A stretch of 27,403 nt of DNA from Chthonomonadales bacterium (GTDB taxonomy: Bacteria > Armatimonadota > Chthonomonadetes > Chthonomonadales > Chthonomonadaceae). The notes under the pieces are model-generated. The model was not told where the DNA came from, made no database searches, and saw nothing but the letters and a program-made list of their open reading frames with translations. Below, one piece after another: positions 9,834-17,458 of this stretch (its first letter is position 1; every line of letters starts with the position of its first letter). The translations under genes and the position numbers were made by a program. The stretch covers positions 1 to 27,403 of the forward strand of contig JBBQPO010000049.1 of the NCBI GenBank assembly GCA_038217285.1. Direction: 5' to 3'.

Positions 9834-12800
9834 TCATCGATATGTTGATCGTTCCAGCCGGTCGATATGCCATCGCACGACCTCCAGTACGGGCATGGAA
9901 GCAGTAAATCCGAGGTAGCTCATCAGCTTCTGGGAGGCGGGATCGCATTCGGATGCCAGAACCGGGCGTTTCAATGCGGCGAAGAAGCGTTCGTTCGCCC
10001 GCCACATGATGAGAGAAAACGCAATCTCCTGCGACGCGGGAAGACGGATGCGGGTGCTCAAAGTCACATAGGGCGCCAGATAGGGCGCACGCGCCATCTC
10101 TCCATTCGGCAGACGGACCACAAGCCCGCCGTTGCGCGAACCGAACAGGAAATCGCGGAAGTCGACGACATCGTAGAAGTCCTGGTAGTCGATCTGATCG
10201 ACGTGGAGCGCCTCGATGGAACGTGTCTGCTCCAGGAGTGACAGCACACGGGTGATACGAATGTTCTGGGGAAACACCGCCATCATCATGCGCATGGTGC
10301 GGCCCGAGGCGATATCGTCGTCGAGGAGCGCGTAGTCTCCGGGCGGAATCGCTTTGACCTGTTCGGTTATCCGGGGGCAGCCGGGACGGGGCGTCACCTG
10401 TGTGGAGAAGCACTGCCCGTCCGCCAGCCCGAAAAGCCGCGACACCTCCAGCCGATGTGAGCCATCGGTGCAGGTATCCAGGGTGATCGTCTCTAGCTCC
10501 TGCCGGAGCGCGTCGGCGTCGGCGTAGGCGACCTGTCCCTCCAACGCCGGAATCTCGATCTTCAATGCCAGCGCCACATCGGGCAGCGGAGGCCGCGCGT
10601 AGGCTGCGCAAAGGGATGTTCGGAGACTCGTGAGCAACTGCATCCTCGCCTCGACCAGTTTCACAGCGTCCCGTCCCTGCTCCCACGGCTGAACCGCCCA
10701 ACCGCTCTCATCCCGAATCAGGAACCATCGCTCCGGGAGTCGCCAGGGCGGGACCGGGCCACGCGCGAGGTTCGCCTTCAGTCCGCCGTAGTAACGGTTG
10801 GAACGCTCCGGCATCGCCTCCATTTCCTCTGAACGAATGCGCGAAGAAGAGATATTGAAATACTCGAGGCGTGGTCTGGCAAAGGCGATGCGGGTGTGGC
10901 TCGGCCCAATCTCCTGCTTCATGGCCACCACTTCACTTTCGTAGCCCGGCCGCTCGATACAGACGGCATAGCCCTGGCGCAGGAAGGTGCGCCCAAACGC
11001 AGCGTTGTCGCCCCCGAAAACGTAGCCGACGCGCACTGGAACCGGCACGCGCAGATGGTGGTTCAGGTAGCGCTCAAGCCGATCAATGACCTCCGTGTAG
11101 TTGACGGCGCACGGCACGTAGCGCACCTCCCAGGGATCGACCATGAGCCACTCGCTGAGCGCGACGGCCTCATGGCACAGACGCAGCCGGTGCGCATCGA
11201 GCAGCCCCGCAGTGCCGTCGTGCTTGGCAGAGACGTAGGAGTCGTGCGAGGGAGAGAGGTAGCCGCCGAGCACGACATGCCCCAGCTCGATCATCGCATT
11301 TTTCGCCAACTCCATCATGTCGAGATGGCCGTTGTGGATCGGAGAGAAGCCTCCGGTCGTGAGCAGTACAAGCGGAGGGTACGCGATCAACTGAGCCGGA
11401 TCGTACTCGTCCAGTTGGGACAGCCGGCGGAGAATCTTGTGGTAGGGCGTGGTCAGCCAGTTCGGGTCGGTATAGCAGTCCGCATCCAGCTCCGTGTCGA
11501 GGCCGTCGTCGAAGAAGCCTGCCTGGCGGAACGCTTCCCGGCTCTGATACCGGGGGCGCATGGCCCTATAGTAGGGCAGACGATGGTCGAACACCAGACA
11601 AGCGCCCGCTTCCGGTTCTACCCGGCGACAGATTTCCGCCTCCTCGGCAAAGCGTGGCCAGTCGTCGAGATTGCGTTCCGACACCGGTCGTTGTGCCTGT
11701 CCGTCACGAACGAATCGGGTCGCGCCGCCCTCGCCTCCACCGGCATCGAGGTAGAGTATCACGGAAACCAGCGTACGCTTGCCTTCATGATAGACGAACG
11801 GAGCGTCGTAGTGCGGGACGAGCGCCCCACCATGCCGGTAGCGGATAAAACGCAAGAGGGGATTGACACCGACGGCCCTCCAGACGGGAGGGCCGTCCCA
11901 GTCGGTCGCCGCAGTGGCATCCAGGATGCGGGGGCTGCCGACGTACGCACCTATCCGGTTCCAGAGGGTCCGTATGGGTGAGGTAGAGTGAGTTGTTCCA
12001 TCCGCCTGGAGTCGCCGCGTGAAGAATATCCAGATGCATGGCTGGCGACTTTCCGATATACTTATGCCGGTTGTAGCGATGTAGCTCCTCCAGGTTGTGC
12101 GCAAAGAACGCAAACTGCGCCTCCGCTTCCGGGCTCCATTCGCGTCGGAAGGAATTGCGCTCGTCCACACTGCCCAGATCCTTCCAGAGCAGGTAGAGCT
12201 CCACGAAGTCGTAGGGCGCACCGAACACCTCCTCGTCTGCGCGACCATCGTATATGTCGCCTGTCGGAGTCGCCTGCAGCACCGATTCGGGAGCGCCCAG
12301 TGATTTCGCGACAGCATACACCTCGCTCTTATGCAGGTCCGAGAGCACCTGCACACCTACCATCGCGTCGGAGGCCCTGCCGATAAACCCCAGATAGCCG
12401 CCTTCGTCCCGGTTGGTCGTGCCGAGCAGCACTGCCGCATGACCCTGCTGCGTCAGGAGGCTGGTTATATAGTAGAGGGCAGGCGTGCGCGCATAGGAGA
12501 CGAGCTGTCCGGAAGCCCATGGCTCGCCACGTACCTCCATAGCCGTGTCCACAGCGGCCTTGATCGCGGTATGTCCGGCAGAGAGGTCTATTTCGACAGG
12601 CTCTATTCCAAACCTCCGTGCAACCTCTCAGCCCTTCGATGTCGCCTCGCTCTGATGGGTCGCACCGGCATCGAACACCGGCATCAGCACCGCCACGATC
12701 TTCTTGATCGGTGAATCCGCCTGCGCTTTCGCCCGCGCCGCCAACCCCAACGCCACCGCCGAATCGACGCCTCCACTGACCCCAAGCACGCACGCCTCCA

Positions 12801-12951
12801 GCCCTGACTCCCGCATATAGGTGTTGAGCACGATCACCTTCACCTGAATGTAGCGTTCAGCTTCGAATCCACGCCTGCGTCGCAACACGGCCAGCGTCTT
12901 ATGCAGTTCTGGGAAAAGGTTTTCTGTAGACTGGGGATTGTAGATACGCAT
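9834..12951 (-). pseudogene. Disrupted multidomain NAD gene: NH3-dependent NAD synthetase + 2OG-Fe(II) oxygenase + NMN/NaMN adenylyltransferase + type I PRTase-like domain
   Basis: NadE: GVSGGVDS, GTTNRDE, SDLHKSEV, PTGDIYDGRADEE. Oxygenase: RFIRY...PHYDAP...GGATRF. NMNAT: GGFSPIHNGH, GGYLSPSHDSY, ISSSRIR. PRPP loop: LLDDDIASGRT. Lesions: in-frame TGA at 12630-12628 and a frame change near 11995-11970. Confidence 0.8.
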
Positions 12952-13074
12952 AGAACGAATTGTACTTCAAATGCGCTGGCTGCTTCGTCGATTTTTAAGC
13001 GGTGCACGGGCAAAATTTCACCATGGCCGAGCGCGGATTTCACGGAGTTTTGACGACCAGCGTGTACAATGAAA

Positions 13075-13294
13075 TCCTGACGCCGCTGGATAGTCATGGA
13101 AAGGCTCTCGCGGAAGGCGGCCCGGAGCTTCTGCATCGCAAGGCCGGGAAATGGACCGTGCTCGATCTATCGAAGGTGCCGGCCGATCCTAACGATCCCC
13201 TAGTGCGGACGATGCCAGCGCAGTATTCGTGAAGCACGTGCGGCAGAAGTTCCATGGCGTGCAGGCGGACATTTTTCCGGAACCGGGGTGCTGA
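13075..13294 (+). pseudogene. Frameshifted C-terminal fragment of an uncharacterised protein
   Basis: LTPLDSHGKALAEGGPELLHRKAGKWTVLDLSKVPADPNDPL continues as (G)ADDASAVFVKHVRQKFHGVQADIFPEPGC* if one base is restored near 13203. No convincing 5' end. Confidence 0.45.
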
Positions 13295-14443: not shown

Positions 14444-15853
14444 TCAGATCGAGAAGTCGGTCTCCGGACGCCCGGCGAGATTGGAAACGGGCAGGGGCGT
14501 CTGAATGATCATGCCTGCGCCGACCGTGGTGTTCGTCGCTTCGTCGATCAGGATCAGGCTGCCGGTCGTGCGATTGCGGCTGTACGCGTCGAAAACAAGC
14601 GGCTGCGTCGTGCGGATGGTGATCCGCGCGATGTCGTTCATGTTCACTGCGTTGTCGTCGCGGATCTTCTCCAAATTGTTGATGTTCAGCTTGTAGTCGA
14701 TGCTCTTGACGACGCAGCGCACCTCTTTCGTCGTATGCTTGACGGCGTACTTGACGTTGGTGGCCAGCGGCTTTTCGCCCATCCAGCAGACCATCATCTC
14801 GATGTCCTGCGAGACGCTCGGCGCTTCGTGGTCGCCGACAATCATGTCGCCGCGACTGATGTCGATCTCGTCCTCCAGCGTCATCGTGACCGACATCGGC
14901 GCAAACGCCTCCGCGTGACTTTCGCCCGCCGTCTCCAACGACTTGACCCGTGATCGGAAGCCGGACGGCAGCACCTTGACCGGATCGCCCTGCTTGAAGA
15001 CGCCCCCGGCGATGCGGCCTGCATAGCCGCGAAAGTCGTGGTACTCAGTGGACTGCGGGCGAATGACATACTGCACCGGCAGGCGCGTGTCGGTCAGGTT
15101 CAGGTCGCTGCTGATATGCGTGGTTTCGAGCACCGAGAGCAGCGTCTGGCCATCGTACCAGGGCATCGCCGTCGAGCGCTCGACCACGTTGTCGCCGCGC
15201 AGCGCGCTGATGGGGATAAAGCGAACGTCCCGCACTTCCAGCCCGGCCGAGAACGCATCGAAATCGCGCCGGATCTGCTCGAAGACCTCCTCGCGGAAAT
15301 CGACGAGATCCATCTTATTGACGCATACGACGATATGCGGAATGCGGAGCAGGCTGGCGATAATGGCGTGGCGGCAGGTCTGCTCGATGACGCCTTTGCG
15401 CGCGTCGATCAGTATCAGTGCCATGTTTGCCGTCGAAGCGCCCGTGACCATGTTGCGGGTGTACTGGATATGGCCCGGCGTGTCCGCGATGATGAACTTA
15501 CGCTTCGGTGTGGCGAAATAGCGGTAGGCGACATCGATGGTGATGCCTTGTTCCCGCTCCGCCCGCAGGCCGTCCGTCAGCAGCGCGAGATTGACGTACT
15601 CCTCGCCGCGCTTCTCCGAAGAGGCCTTGATGGCGTCGTACTGATCGTCGAAGATCGACTTGCTGTCGTACAGCAGCCGACCGATCAGGGTGCTCTTGCC
15701 GTCGTCCACGCTGCCGGCCGTCGTGAACCTCAGCAGCTCCATGTCGAGGTAGCTCGCGCTGGAAAACTCGTCGCTCTCTAAGACTGTCACATGCGTCTCC
15801 GCCTGGGCGGCGTGATGCCCGTTGCCCGCGTCTGCCTGAAGCTCCGTAGGCAT
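14444..15853 (-). CDS. cysN: Sulfate adenylyltransferase subunit 1 (GTPase), no fused APS kinase
   Basis: LLRFTTAGSVDDGKSTLIGRLL, AEREQGITIDVAYRYF, ADTPGH, NKMD, TGSLILID...TVGAGMI. Confidence 0.96.
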   Translation of the reverse strand: MPTELQADAGNGHHAAQAETHVTVLESDEFSSASYLDMELLRFTTAGSVDDGKSTLIGRLLYDSKSIFDDQYDAIKASSEKRGEEYVNLALLTDGLRAEREQGITIDVAYRYFATPKRKFIIADTPGHIQYTRNMVTGASTANMALILIDARKGVIEQTCRHAIIASLLRIPHIVVCVNKMDLVDFREEVFEQIRRDFDAFSAGLEVRDVRFIPISALRGDNVVERSTAMPWYDGQTLLSVLETTHISSDLNLTDTRLPVQYVIRPQSTEYHDFRGYAGRIAGGVFKQGDPVKVLPSGFRSRVKSLETAGESHAEAFAPMSVTMTLEDEIDISRGDMIVGDHEAPSVSQDIEMMVCWMGEKPLATNVKYAVKHTTKEVRCVVKSIDYKLNINNLEKIRDDNAVNMNDIARITIRTTQPLVFDAYSRNRTTGSLILIDEATNTTVGAGMIIQTPLPVSNLAGRPETDFSI

Positions 15854-16758
15854 CAGAAGTAGCCCTCTTTTTTGCGGTCTTCCATCGCCGCTTCCGAACG
15901 CCTGTCGTCGGCGCGGTTGCCGCGCTCCGTGGTGCGGCTGGCCGCGACCTCCTGAATGATCTCCTCCATCGTGGTGGCCGGAGAGAGTATCGCGCCCGTG
16001 TTCGTCATGTCTCCGATGGTGCGGAACCGCACCTGCCGCATCGCGGGCGTCTCTCCAGACTTGAGCGTCAGGAACTCCGACTTCGACAGCAGCACACCGT
16101 CGCGGTTCACGACCTCGCGCTCATGGGTGAAGTAGAGGCTGGGCATCACGACCTTCTCGACATAGAGGTACTGCCACACGTCCATCTCCGTCCAGTTGCT
16201 TATAGGAAAGATTCGGAAATGTTCGCCGATATGCTTCTTGCCATTGAACAGGTTCCAGAGCTCTGGGCGCTGATTCTTAGGGTCCCACTGTCCGAAATCG
16301 TCGCGGTGGGAAAAGAAGCGCTCTTTGGCGCGCGCCTTCTCCTCGTCCCGTCGGCCTCCTCCGATGGCGGCATCTACCTTAAGCTCCTCGATGGCGTCCA
16401 ACAGCGTCACCGTCTGCAACACATTGCGGCTGGCGTTGACGCCCTGCTCTTCGACGGCGCGGCCTTTGTCGATCGAGGCCTGCACATACCGAATCACCAG
16501 ATTCGCACCGATCTGCTCCACCCACCGGTCGCGATACGAAAGCGTCTCCGCGAAGTTGTGGCCGGTGTCGATGTGCAGCAGAGGAAAGGGGATCTTTGCA
16601 GGCCAGAAGGCTTTGCGCGCCAGATGACTCAACACGATGGAGTCCTTGCCGCCGGAAAACAGCAGAACAGGCCGCTCGAACTGGGCGGCAACCTCCCGCA
16701 GGACGAAGATAGACTCGGATTCGAGTTCCTTAAGGTGAGTTAATCGATAGGAATTCAT
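15853..16758 (-). CDS. cysD: Sulfate adenylyltransferase subunit 2
   Basis: LFSGGKDS, RRDEEKARAKERFFS, WDPKNQRPELW, MEDRKKEGYF; TGATG overlap with cysN. Confidence 0.97.
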   Translation of the reverse strand: MNSYRLTHLKELESESIFVLREVAAQFERPVLLFSGGKDSIVLSHLARKAFWPAKIPFPLLHIDTGHNFAETLSYRDRWVEQIGANLVIRYVQASIDKGRAVEEQGVNASRNVLQTVTLLDAIEELKVDAAIGGGRRDEEKARAKERFFSHRDDFGQWDPKNQRPELWNLFNGKKHIGEHFRIFPISNWTEMDVWQYLYVEKVVMPSLYFTHEREVVNRDGVLLSKSEFLTLKSGETPAMRQVRFRTIGDMTNTGAILSPATTMEEIIQEVAASRTTERGNRADDRRSEAAMEDRKKEGYF

Positions 16759-16834
16759 AATATTTCCACAAGACAGTGCCCGACGTCAGTGTCCGTGCCG
16801 TCAAAATTCTGCCGAACGGACCCGGCAGCACTCT

Positions 16835-16840
16835 ATTATA
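16835..16840 (-). promoter_or_regulatory. -10 box (TATAAT) for cysDN
   Basis: Perfect hexamer about 77 nt upstream of the cysD ATG. Confidence 0.5.
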
Positions 16841-16900
16841 CCTTGAAACCGCCTCACCCCGTTGACCGGACACGGACGGTGGACTCGCGGCGCTGCCTTG

Positions 16901-17458
16901 TCAGGAGCGCGGAGCTTTGGCGGCGCACACGAGAGCCTCGATGGCGTCCTGTAGGGCCCGGCACAACTCCGGATTCGCAAGCAGGCTCGCTTCATCGAGG
17001 CGATTCGTCGTGATTGGCAGGGTGACGGATGCCGCTGTATCGATCTCTGCCATCATCACCGTCAGCGTTTCTCGGAGGGACGCCTGCGCGTAGATCGAGG
17101 CCGGGCGGGCATTCACGAGGGCAACGGATTTGCCCATGAACTCTCCGCTGCTGACGATCCAGTCCAGCGCGTTCTTGAGGACGCCCGGTACGCCATGCGC
17201 ATATTCCGGGCTGCAGATCAGCACAGCGTCCGCTTCTCGCAGCTGCGTCCGGAAGTCGACGACCGCCGGAGGAGGGTTCTCTCCATCAAGGTCCGGATTA
17301 TAATGTGGCAGATCGCCAAGGCCATCGTAGAGCGAGATTGTGACGGAAGGGAGCGCCAGATGTTGGGCGGCTCGGAGCACGGTGGTGTTCGCGGACGCGG
17401 CGCGCAGACTACCGGAAATGGCAAGCAGATGCAGGTCGTTGTCTTCAGTGTGACTCAT
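16901..17458 (-). CDS. NADPH-dependent FMN reductase (flavodoxin-like)
   Basis: AISGSLRAASAN, LPHYNPDLD, SPEYAHGVPGVLKNALDW. Confidence 0.93.
   Translation of the reverse strand: MSHTEDNDLHLLAISGSLRAASANTTVLRAAQHLALPSVTISLYDGLGDLPHYNPDLDGENPPPAVVDFRTQLREADAVLICSPEYAHGVPGVLKNALDWIVSSGEFMGKSVALVNARPASIYAQASLRETLTVMMAEIDTAASVTLPITTNRLDEASLLANPELCRALQDAIEALVCAAKAPRS

Follow-up and report, generated by a model that had tools for sequence, protein, structure and literature searches.

Several compact enzyme sets for making or rebuilding nicotinamide adenine dinucleotide (NAD) have been described, and here we compare with them a locus on the minus strand at positions 9834–12951 of a 27,403-nucleotide stretch of DNA from a Chthonomonadales bacterium (contig JBBQPO010000049.1 of assembly GCA_038217285.1; the whole stretch is called the window). 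The locus carries, in order, parts of a NadE paralogue, a 2-oxoglutarate (2OG)-Fe(II) oxygenase, a nicotinamide mononucleotide adenylyltransferase (NMNAT) and a phosphoribosyltransferase (PRTase)-like domain. In Preiss-Handler salvage (PncB, NadD and NadE), a base and phosphoribosyl pyrophosphate (PRPP) give a mononucleotide, which is adenylated and then amidated, and the module would use the same chemistry. It differs from that pathway in its PRTase, which is type I-like, lacks PF04095 and is not a type II nicotinate PRTase (NAPRT), and in its adenylyltransferase, which is eukaryote-type and not NadD. It also adds an oxygenase or a radical S-adenosylmethionine (SAM) enzyme as an integral partner, and its domains are fused in one or two chains.

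NadR (NMNAT plus ribosylnicotinamide kinase) and NadM-Nudix are cases in which NMNAT is fused to an enzyme that supplies or removes the mononucleotide, often under NrtR or NadR control, according to the accessible parts of two articles (PMC2330246, PMC7824862). The NMNAT of the module is likewise fused to a domain that would act at the mononucleotide level, but its partner has a PRTase-like fold rather than that of a P-loop kinase or a Nudix enzyme, and the NMNAT itself is nearest to human NMNAT1/3. Among the phage pathways, NARP1 consists of Adps and Namat, NARP2 of Nampt and NMNAT, and NARP3 of PnuC and NadR (PMC13464706, accessible text). These are also compact NAD-rebuilding gene sets, some with an NMNAT, and the module too occurs on IMG/VR contigs; NadE, a type I PRTase and an oxygenase are absent from the NARP sets as given in that text. 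Conversely, the module lacks Adps, Namat and PnuC, and NAMPT is a neighbor in only 4 of the 80 loci listed for the family (at least 80 loci, one genome per species; fractions of loci below refer to these 80).

In Francisella, NadE acts as an NMN synthetase, and this step precedes adenylation by NadM. The module may resemble this route, with its NadE-family enzyme working on the mononucleotide ahead of adenylation, and F. tularensis NadE (3fiu) was among the PDB matches of the NadE domain (E = 5e-15). The module has a PRTase and an oxygenase as additional partners.

The window locus and its intact relatives

Three minus-strand open reading frames (ORFs; 12628–12951, 11785–12552 and 9834–12356) together span the locus, and a three-frame translation places the first two in one frame and the third in another. 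Pfam gave the domain order NAD_synthase, 2OG-FeII_Oxy_3/PhyH and CTP_transf_like, followed by 299 C-terminal amino acids (a.a.) of PRTase-like character, so that three ORFs with four motif sets in this order, as seen in a preliminary description made from the letters alone, were found again. We compared the window with two intact relatives, G001 from the same genus and G018. In a three-way DNA alignment, the window was 73.8% identical to G001 over 3337 columns and had only two large gaps, one of 299 bp and one of 229 bp. Each relative contains a pair of open frames, the two lying in different frames (595 and 691 a.a. in G001, and 591 and 637 a.a. in G018, from stop to stop). In this intact state, gene 1 encodes a NadE-oxygenase of ~590 a.a. 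and gene 2 an NMNAT-PRTase of ~626 a.a., with the annotated start of gene 2 lying a few bases inside the end of gene 1, in the other frame. The window locus is composed as follows (dN/dS, ratio of nonsynonymous to synonymous substitution rates).

12631..12951, minus strand: NadE domain of gene 1, codons 1–107, including SGGVDS (Pfam NAD_synthase, 30.2 bits; 80% a.a. identity to the G001 orthologue, dN/dS 0.11)
12628..12630, minus strand: nonsense TGA within NadE (the same codon is CGG, Arg, in G001 and AAG, Lys, in G018)
11967..12627, minus strand: remaining NadE domain of gene 1, up to the junction of the first deletion (Pfam NAD_synthase, 60.8 bits; 79% a.a. identity to G001, dN/dS 0.10)
11966..11967, minus strand: scar of the 299-bp deletion (segment present in G001 and G018 in the three-way DNA alignment)
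11577..11966, minus strand: 2OG-Fe(II) oxygenase remnant, 130 codons equivalent to orthologue residues 429–558 (Pfam 2OG-FeII_Oxy_3 and PhyH; pairwise alignment)
11576..11577, minus strand: scar of the 229-bp deletion (three-way alignment against G001 and G018; contigs of runs X2, X3 and X5)
10734..11576, minus strand: gene 2 from codon ~47, linker and eukaryote-type NMNAT with GGFSPIHNGH, GGYLSPSHD, VDPWE and ISSSRIR (Pfam CTP_transf_like, 28.9 bits; TIGR00482, 46.2 bits, under the cut-off)
9837..10733, minus strand: C-terminal domain of gene 2, type I PRTase-like, 299 a.a., with the loop LLDDDIASGRT; stop codon at 9834–9836 (AlphaFold2 (AF2), VIA-align, ESM Atlas)

The first two ORFs are split by a single in-frame TGA (12630–12628) and not by a frameshift. 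A sense or recoded reading of this TGA was ruled out: TGA ends 8 of the 12 window ORFs checked, the relatives have Arg or Lys at this position, and two deletions lie alongside. The 299-bp deletion takes out the linker between NadE and the oxygenase domain together with the N-terminal portion of the latter (approximately residues 329–428 of the 590-a.a. orthologue), and the frameshift of the locus is its effect. Through the 229-bp deletion, gene 1 has lost its last ~32 codons and its stop codon, gene 2 has lost its first ~46 codons, and the overlap between the genes is gone, which places the oxygenase 'VFDHRL' in frame with the gene 2 'PYYRAM'. The single polypeptide of ~1040 a.a. proposed for this locus thus dissolves into two overlapping genes (590 and 626 a.a.) fused by the 229-bp deletion, its second break being the 299-bp scar.

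Both deletions strike invariant oxygenase residues. The remnant keeps the HxD motif (HYD) and 'FDHRL', and its distal His and Arg are gone: H241, R256 and D258, which are invariant in an alignment of 38 intact homologues (A2), fall inside the DNA lost in the 229-bp deletion, and the window copy therefore lacks a complete HxD...H triad and the 2OG-binding Arg. Taken together, an ordinary stop codon, two deletions and the loss of iron and 2OG ligands indicate that the locus is a pseudogene of a two-gene operon.

The nearest homologues have the same two-gene form. The 15 best-matching database proteins among the matches listed (P0002–P0016) are ~620 a.a. long, are 66–79% identical and align only to the NMNAT and C-terminal part, and all three nearest loci (L017, L018 and L019; 64–73% identity over the PRTase-like domain) have two ORFs in different frames. 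Contigs of the runs X2, X3 and X5 cover parts of the stretch that lie outside the 299-bp junction and the TGA. The X2 contig, from another sediment sample and ~97% alike, differed at 9 of 341 letters and at 5 of 92, and carried 228 extra letters exactly at 11576. The X3 and X5 contigs cease to fit at the same position, and the loose end of X5 encodes, on the gene strand, the WKLLRD motif of the gene 2 N-terminus. These extra letters and contig ends imply that a near relative still has the undeleted form. The dN/dS values against G001 (0.10–0.11 for NadE and 0.14 for gene 2) are close to those of the intact pair G001/G018 (0.09–0.10); together with the undeleted relative, this indicates that the inactivation was recent.

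The genome of the window (95% complete) encodes canonical NadE (212 bits), NadD (176 bits) and NadC (217 bits), and no PF04095 protein was found in it. Among 41 related genomes, only three (G000, G001 and G018) carry the module, and G015 gave merely a weak oxygenase-like match. Since the host retains canonical NadC, NadD and NadE, the module appears to have been dispensable here and to have decayed. We assign a probability of roughly 0.78 to the reading that positions 9834–12951 are a recently inactivated remnant of a two-gene operon, whose family provides an accessory, NrtR-linked route to NAD.

Two side observations concern gene 2 itself. One contig of run X3 (depth 5.5, 90–95% alike) omits 418 bases inside the PRTase-like domain (window 10020–10437), which may be a gene 2 deletion of its own in a related population, or a chimeric contig. 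The N-terminus of gene 2 has a conserved motif of ~46 residues (..D.AY......R.AWK.LRDP.Y..; for example L007:6649–6786, minus strand), which is deleted in the window at 11576|11577 and sits between the oxygenase and the NMNAT in single-chain forms such as P0058. It had no Pfam match, and a J-domain-like label was dropped because Pfam returned no DnaJ match.

Four domains and their spread among bacteria

The two NadE pieces of the window (30.2 and 60.8 bits, with a Pfam cut-off of 21) come to 100 bits when read through with the one TGA inside that interrupts the reading frame, and the intact homologue P0056 scored 99.6 bits for TIGR00552 (cut-off 63.65). The PDB matches of NadE are NH3-dependent NAD synthetases, down to E = 3e-19. 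The SGGVDS in the translation of 12631–12951, which we take to be the PP-loop, falls in columns that are nearly invariant in A2. As a synthetase of this kind, the NadE paralogue would amidate nicotinate adenine dinucleotide (NaAD) or nicotinate mononucleotide (NaMN) with ammonia.

The oxygenase ligands H161, D163, H241 and R256 are invariant in the 38 intact homologues, and the window remnant matched 2OG-FeII_Oxy_3 (27.4 bits) and PhyH (24.6 bits). The AF2 model of the G001 orthologue (predicted local distance difference test (pLDDT) score of 91.9) has a prolyl 4-hydroxylase-like double-stranded β-helix fold, and Foldseek matched it to PolD, bacterial and algal prolyl 4-hydroxylases, SnoN and OGFOD1 (E ~1e-7, probability 1.00). 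These matches are too generic to assign a substrate.

The NMNAT domain matched PF01467 (28.9 bits, cut-off 21) and stayed below the cut-off of TIGR00482 (46.2 versus 112.45 bits). Its top seven PDB sequences are of the NMNAT1/NMNAT3 type (E = 3e-14 to 2e-7), in comparison with 0.9 for bacterial NadD, in agreement with the earlier view that it resembles eukaryotic NMNAT more than NadD. The translation contains PIHNGH and ISSSRIR, presumably the HxGH-type and ISSxxxR-type motifs of NMNATs.

The C-terminal 299 a.a. matched no Pfam family at E≤0.1, no NCBIfam at E≤1 and no PDB sequence at E≤10. The AF2 model of this domain had a pLDDT of 91.7, and 20 of its top 25 VIA-align rows carry the title of a PRTase, a PRPP synthetase, PurR or PyrR (Z 5.5–7.5 over ~100 residues). 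Its neighbors in the ESM Atlas are clusters named 'Phosphoribosyltransferase domain-containing protein' (0.94–0.95). In type I PRTases, the PRPP-binding loop is a hydrophobic run followed by two acidic residues and then xxxxGxT. The corresponding motif in the window is ALLDDDIASGRT; 14 residues, including D139, D140 and T146, are invariant over 49 sequences of the domain, and G144 is nearly so. We read the domain as a probable divergent type I PRTase, the evidence from the fold alone being moderate; the VIA-align rows and the ESM Atlas clusters speak for a fold like that of type I PRTases and not for a type II NAPRT, in keeping with the earlier remark that canonical, type II nicotinate PRTases lack the DDxxxxGxT loop seen here. 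By analogy with such enzymes, it would transfer phosphoribosyl from PRPP to a base.

A query with the PRTase-like domain retrieved 748 representative clusters at E≤1e-3 among 1.84 billion. The nearest of the listed loci belong to Chthonomonadaceae and other metagenome-assembled genomes (MAGs) of Armatimonadota; the remainder come from Candidate Phyla Radiation (CPR) phyla, Bacillota gut MAGs, Myxococcota, Obscuribacterales, Elusimicrobiota, Gammaproteobacteria, Actinomycetota, Bacteroidota and Leptospiraceae. All four domains lie in one ORF in 15 loci. NadE-2OG and NMNAT-PRTase form two ORFs in 18, three ORFs were found in 9, and NadE accompanies NMNAT-PRTase without an oxygenase in 32. The other loci have an oxygenase with no NadE seen (3 loci, two of them at contig ends), NMNAT-PRTase only (one locus, at a contig end), or NMNAT and PRTase in different ORFs (2 loci). 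NMNAT and PRTase are thus joined in one ORF in 78 loci, and a NadE paralogue stands beside them in 76 (15+18+9+32+2). The search for intact single-chain homologues, which had been proposed as a check, was successful: besides the 15 single-ORF loci, 53 of the 120 listed database proteins exceed 1000 a.a., and true one-gene assembly lines do exist, outside this lineage; myxobacteria have such a single-chain form.

RefSeq labels gene 2 a 'hypothetical protein', and a full-text literature search, whose reach ended at subscription journals and supplements, found no description of the architecture, in line with the initial statement that no characterised protein was known to have it. The family is real, widespread and apparently uncharacterised. 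Among its exceptions, the two loci with separate NMNAT and PRTase ORFs (L026 and L057) look damaged or rearranged, and in L026 a NadE-2OG gene lies downstream of them. L092 also has the look of a damaged locus, in that the NAMPT beside the cluster matches as three short pieces in two frames.

The oxidative partner and the possible product

The oxygenase is not a universal part of the module and is replaced by a radical SAM enzyme in 29 of the 80 loci. The oxygenase alone was found in 47 loci, neither in 4 and both in none, so that 76 loci have one or the other; the loci without an oxygenase all have a radical SAM gene, except three contigs that end early and L027. The 2OG/radical SAM label needs only 4 changes on the NMNAT-PRTase tree, of which the starred branches force 1, indicating that the split of 47 versus 29 reflects few events and not many independent ones. 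For this reason, the mutual exclusion was set aside as statistical evidence.

Two types of radical SAM enzyme were distinguished. Type a lies directly upstream of NadE in 24 loci, and type b, present in 5, is RaSEA-like (TIGR01210, 194 and 214 bits, cut-off 212). Type b is directly upstream of NadE in L033, and convergent and downstream of NMNAT-PRTase in the CPR loci L025 and L028. In the IMG/VR contig L097, a RaSEA-like gene stands between NadE and NMNAT-PRTase, the place of the oxygenase elsewhere. A more sensitive tblastn search gave a weak (E ~5e-6), oppositely oriented match to a third radical SAM type in the 2OG loci L092 and L093.

Several neighboring genes relate to NAD. NrtR occurs in 9 loci from several phyla, canonical NadD or NadE adjoins the paralogues in L047, L068 and L095, and L080 has PnuC, NadR and NAMPT nearby. 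An amino-acid racemase lies directly upstream in 6 loci and likewise in Variovorax megaplasmids; the plasmid operon of Variovorax sp. SRS16 has the order racemase, nadE, 2OG oxygenase, hypothetical gene. As further companions, a Pfam-less family of 236–322 a.a. accompanies the module in 18 loci from Bacillota, CPR, Legionella shakespearei and Pseudomonadales MAGs (L034:11808–12563; L086:3364–4329; L028:8982–9851, minus strand), a second Pfam-less family of ~617 a.a. in 13 Bacillota loci (L034:9419–11275), and a cyanophycin-synthetase-like ATP-grasp ligase in 7 loci.

Judged by the domain assignments, the module may constitute an accessory Preiss-Handler-like route to NAD with a non-canonical PRTase and an oxidative step. 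The PRTase-like domain would join PRPP and a base, in the simplest case nicotinate, to give a pyridine mononucleotide; adenylation of this product would fall to the NMNAT and amidation of the carboxylate to the NadE paralogue, while the oxygenase, or the radical SAM enzyme in anaerobes, would perform an obligatory oxidative step. In three of the five CPR genomes checked (G041, G042 and G044), the sole strong NAD_synthase hits and the sole TIGR00482 hits are the genes of the cluster, and no PF04095 or PF01729 protein (PncB, NadV, NadC) was found in these three; G043 and G045 hold other NAD genes. The cluster as the only NadE and NMNAT of these CPR genomes, together with the linkage to NrtR, supports a route to NAD itself. 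The self-contained NAD module proposed at the outset is favored by the same two observations for the family, and does not hold for the window, where the locus is dead; overall, the initial observation was partly confirmed and its interpretation partly supported.

Alternatively, the family could make an oxidatively modified or decorated pyridine dinucleotide (a cofactor, a signal or a natural-product precursor) instead of plain NAD. The near-constant oxygenase or radical SAM enzyme would fit such a product, as would the housekeeping NadD or NadE adjoining the paralogues, and some loci add an ATP-grasp ligase, a methyltransferase, a GNAT, Nudix or PhyH protein, or the uncharacterised families cl2 and cl4. 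The nearest solved folds of the oxygenase also include the nucleoside-antibiotic enzymes PolD and PasI. However, the additional tailoring genes are restricted to particular lineages, the association with NrtR points to a part in NAD homeostasis, and the cluster should supply NAD itself in the three CPR genomes where it is the only NadE and NMNAT found. We consider a modified product unlikely.

A different role for the oxidative partner can be sketched, which we regard as speculative and improbable. The NadE paralogue might ligate an amino-acid amine, for example that of lysine, to adenylated nicotinate, and the fused 2OG oxygenase in aerobes, or a RaSEA-like or other radical SAM enzyme in anaerobes, might then cleave the N–C bond oxidatively to leave the carboxamide. 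What led us to this idea is that NadE is fused to the oxygenase, that one radical SAM type is homologous to RaSEA, and that racemase and ATP-grasp genes are neighbors. The chemistry would parallel that of ArcS-RaSEA and of peptide α-amidation. In archaeosine synthesis, RaSEA leaves only the nitrogen of a lysine added beforehand. The first step of the archaeal pathway is this addition of lysine to preQ0, according to the accessible part of PMC11298593. The module resembles that system in the RaSEA-like radical SAM partner of 5 listed loci and L097; the substrate there is tRNA-bound preQ0, whereas the neighbors here are NAD enzymes, and the analogy serves as a lead only.

Mobile copies, alternatives for the lesions and implications

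A further proposal of the preliminary description was that the module rebuilds NAD after NAD-depleting conflict, in the manner of the phage NARP pathways. That it is mainly such a device, acting after NADase-type immunity, seems quite doubtful. In its favor, seven IMG/VR contigs (75–430 kb) carry NMNAT-PRTase, and in five of these the locus also includes NadE, an oxidative partner (oxygenase or radical SAM gene) or both; copies are found on megaplasmids as well, and on a Leptospira interrogans replicon the operon adjoins genes for a TIR-domain protein, an abortive-infection protein, an HNH nuclease and an integrase. On the other hand, 50,697 deposited phage genomes gave no match, PADLOC returned nothing but a generic 2OG model, and most loci are chromosomal, with NAD housekeeping genes. 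Moreover, NARP1–3 use other enzymes as far as the accessible text of PMC13464706 describes them, and the IMG/VR contigs are viral by database class only. A role in NAD conflicts is possible, and secondary on present evidence.

Some of these mobile copies deserve description. The only PHROGs match of the module is to NAD synthetase. On the 393-kb L. interrogans replicon (L105, 3503–12264), the gene order is an NrtR-like Nudix gene, nadE, the 2OG oxygenase and a hypothetical gene (NMNAT-PRTase), with the putative abortive-infection gene and the TIR-domain, HNH endonuclease and integrase genes mentioned above next to it. L097 (2412–6597) lies on a 231-kb IMG/VR contig classed as viral and has the order NadE, RaSEA-like radical SAM and NMNAT-PRTase. 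Six further IMG/VR contigs (75–430 kb) have NMNAT-PRTase, four of them with an oxygenase in the locus, and two of these four also with NadE.

The genes around the window locus are unrelated to NAD (Gfo/Idh/MocA, CysN/CysD, Nramp and a DtxR-like repressor). Positions 339–2471 and 14444–17458 encode an Nramp transporter with a DtxR-type iron-dependent repressor bearing a FeoA domain and, separately, a CysN-like GTPase/CysD-like PAPS_reduct pair followed by an FMN reductase; these two regions are an ordinary housekeeping context, and no mobile-element genes were seen in them. Between 5461 and 9471 lie four successive minus-strand ORFs of 209, 371, 290 and 335 a.a., which had no Pfam match at E≤1e-5. 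The last of them ends with a hydrophobic stretch, RRLRRRR and a PEP motif, which we take to resemble a PEP-CTERM sorting signal.

With respect to the lesions, it is very unlikely that they are artefacts of low-coverage metagenome assembly in an organism with an intact two-gene operon. The depth in run X1, probably the source sample and hence not independent, is only ~7–9×, and the contigs of the second assembler (Logan) break near 11553–11572, beside one junction. Nevertheless, the X1 contig of this assembler matched 11553–13100 with 0 differences and 0 gaps, including the TGA and the 299-bp junction, and extended 24 letters beyond the 229-bp junction, and three separate lesions within 1.1 kb would be unusual for short-read assembly error. 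That this lineage had one ancestral NadE-2OG-NMNAT-PRTase polypeptide of ~1040 a.a., since interrupted by two minor frame errors, is hardly credible: single-chain forms exist in the 15 loci mentioned above (for example P0036, P0056 and P0058, at 1114–1197 a.a.), and the 2OG remnant and NMNAT-PRTase do share a frame in the window, but this in-frame join is the very site of the 229-bp gap that removes the gene 1 stop and the gene 2 start, the ~97% alike contig from another sample holds the missing 228 letters, L017, L018 and L019 all have two ORFs in different frames, and true single-chain fusions measure 1100–1250 a.a. as opposed to 1040.

Returning to the reading of a recently inactivated operon from an accessory, NrtR-linked NAD route, a number of points weigh against it. 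Gene 2 stays open from codon 47 over 580 codons and might have retained activity, and the non-independent X1 contig passes the junction 11576|11577 with only 24 letters on one side. For the C-terminal domain, PF00156 gave no match, Foldseek found nothing in the PDB at E≤0.001, and the VIA-align fold match is moderate (best Z 7.7, all under 8); the substrate proposed for the domain is a guess. A plain Preiss-Handler route needs no oxidation, leaving the near-universal oxygenase or radical SAM partner unexplained. The CPR argument rests on three genomes, whose completeness is not given. Finally, the canonical NadD, NadE or NAMPT beside the cluster in L047, L068, L095 and L080 speaks for a function of the paralogues that is not wholly redundant.

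If the PRTase-like domain makes NaMN or NMN, it would be a non-orthologous replacement for PncB/NadV. In that case, the apparent NAD gap in some CPR genomes would close, and calls of NAD auxotrophy in MAGs would change. The amine-ligation scheme, if true, would complete NAD independently of ammonia; taken together with a nicotinate PRTase of type I, it would amount to a fourth route to NAD that is self-contained, and the sole one in some CPR bacteria. The alternation of oxygenase and radical SAM enzyme appears to mark an oxygen-adapted chemical step in NAD formation. The copy in the window is an ordinary pseudogene, yet it draws attention to an NAD module that is compact, widespread and, as it seems, unstudied.

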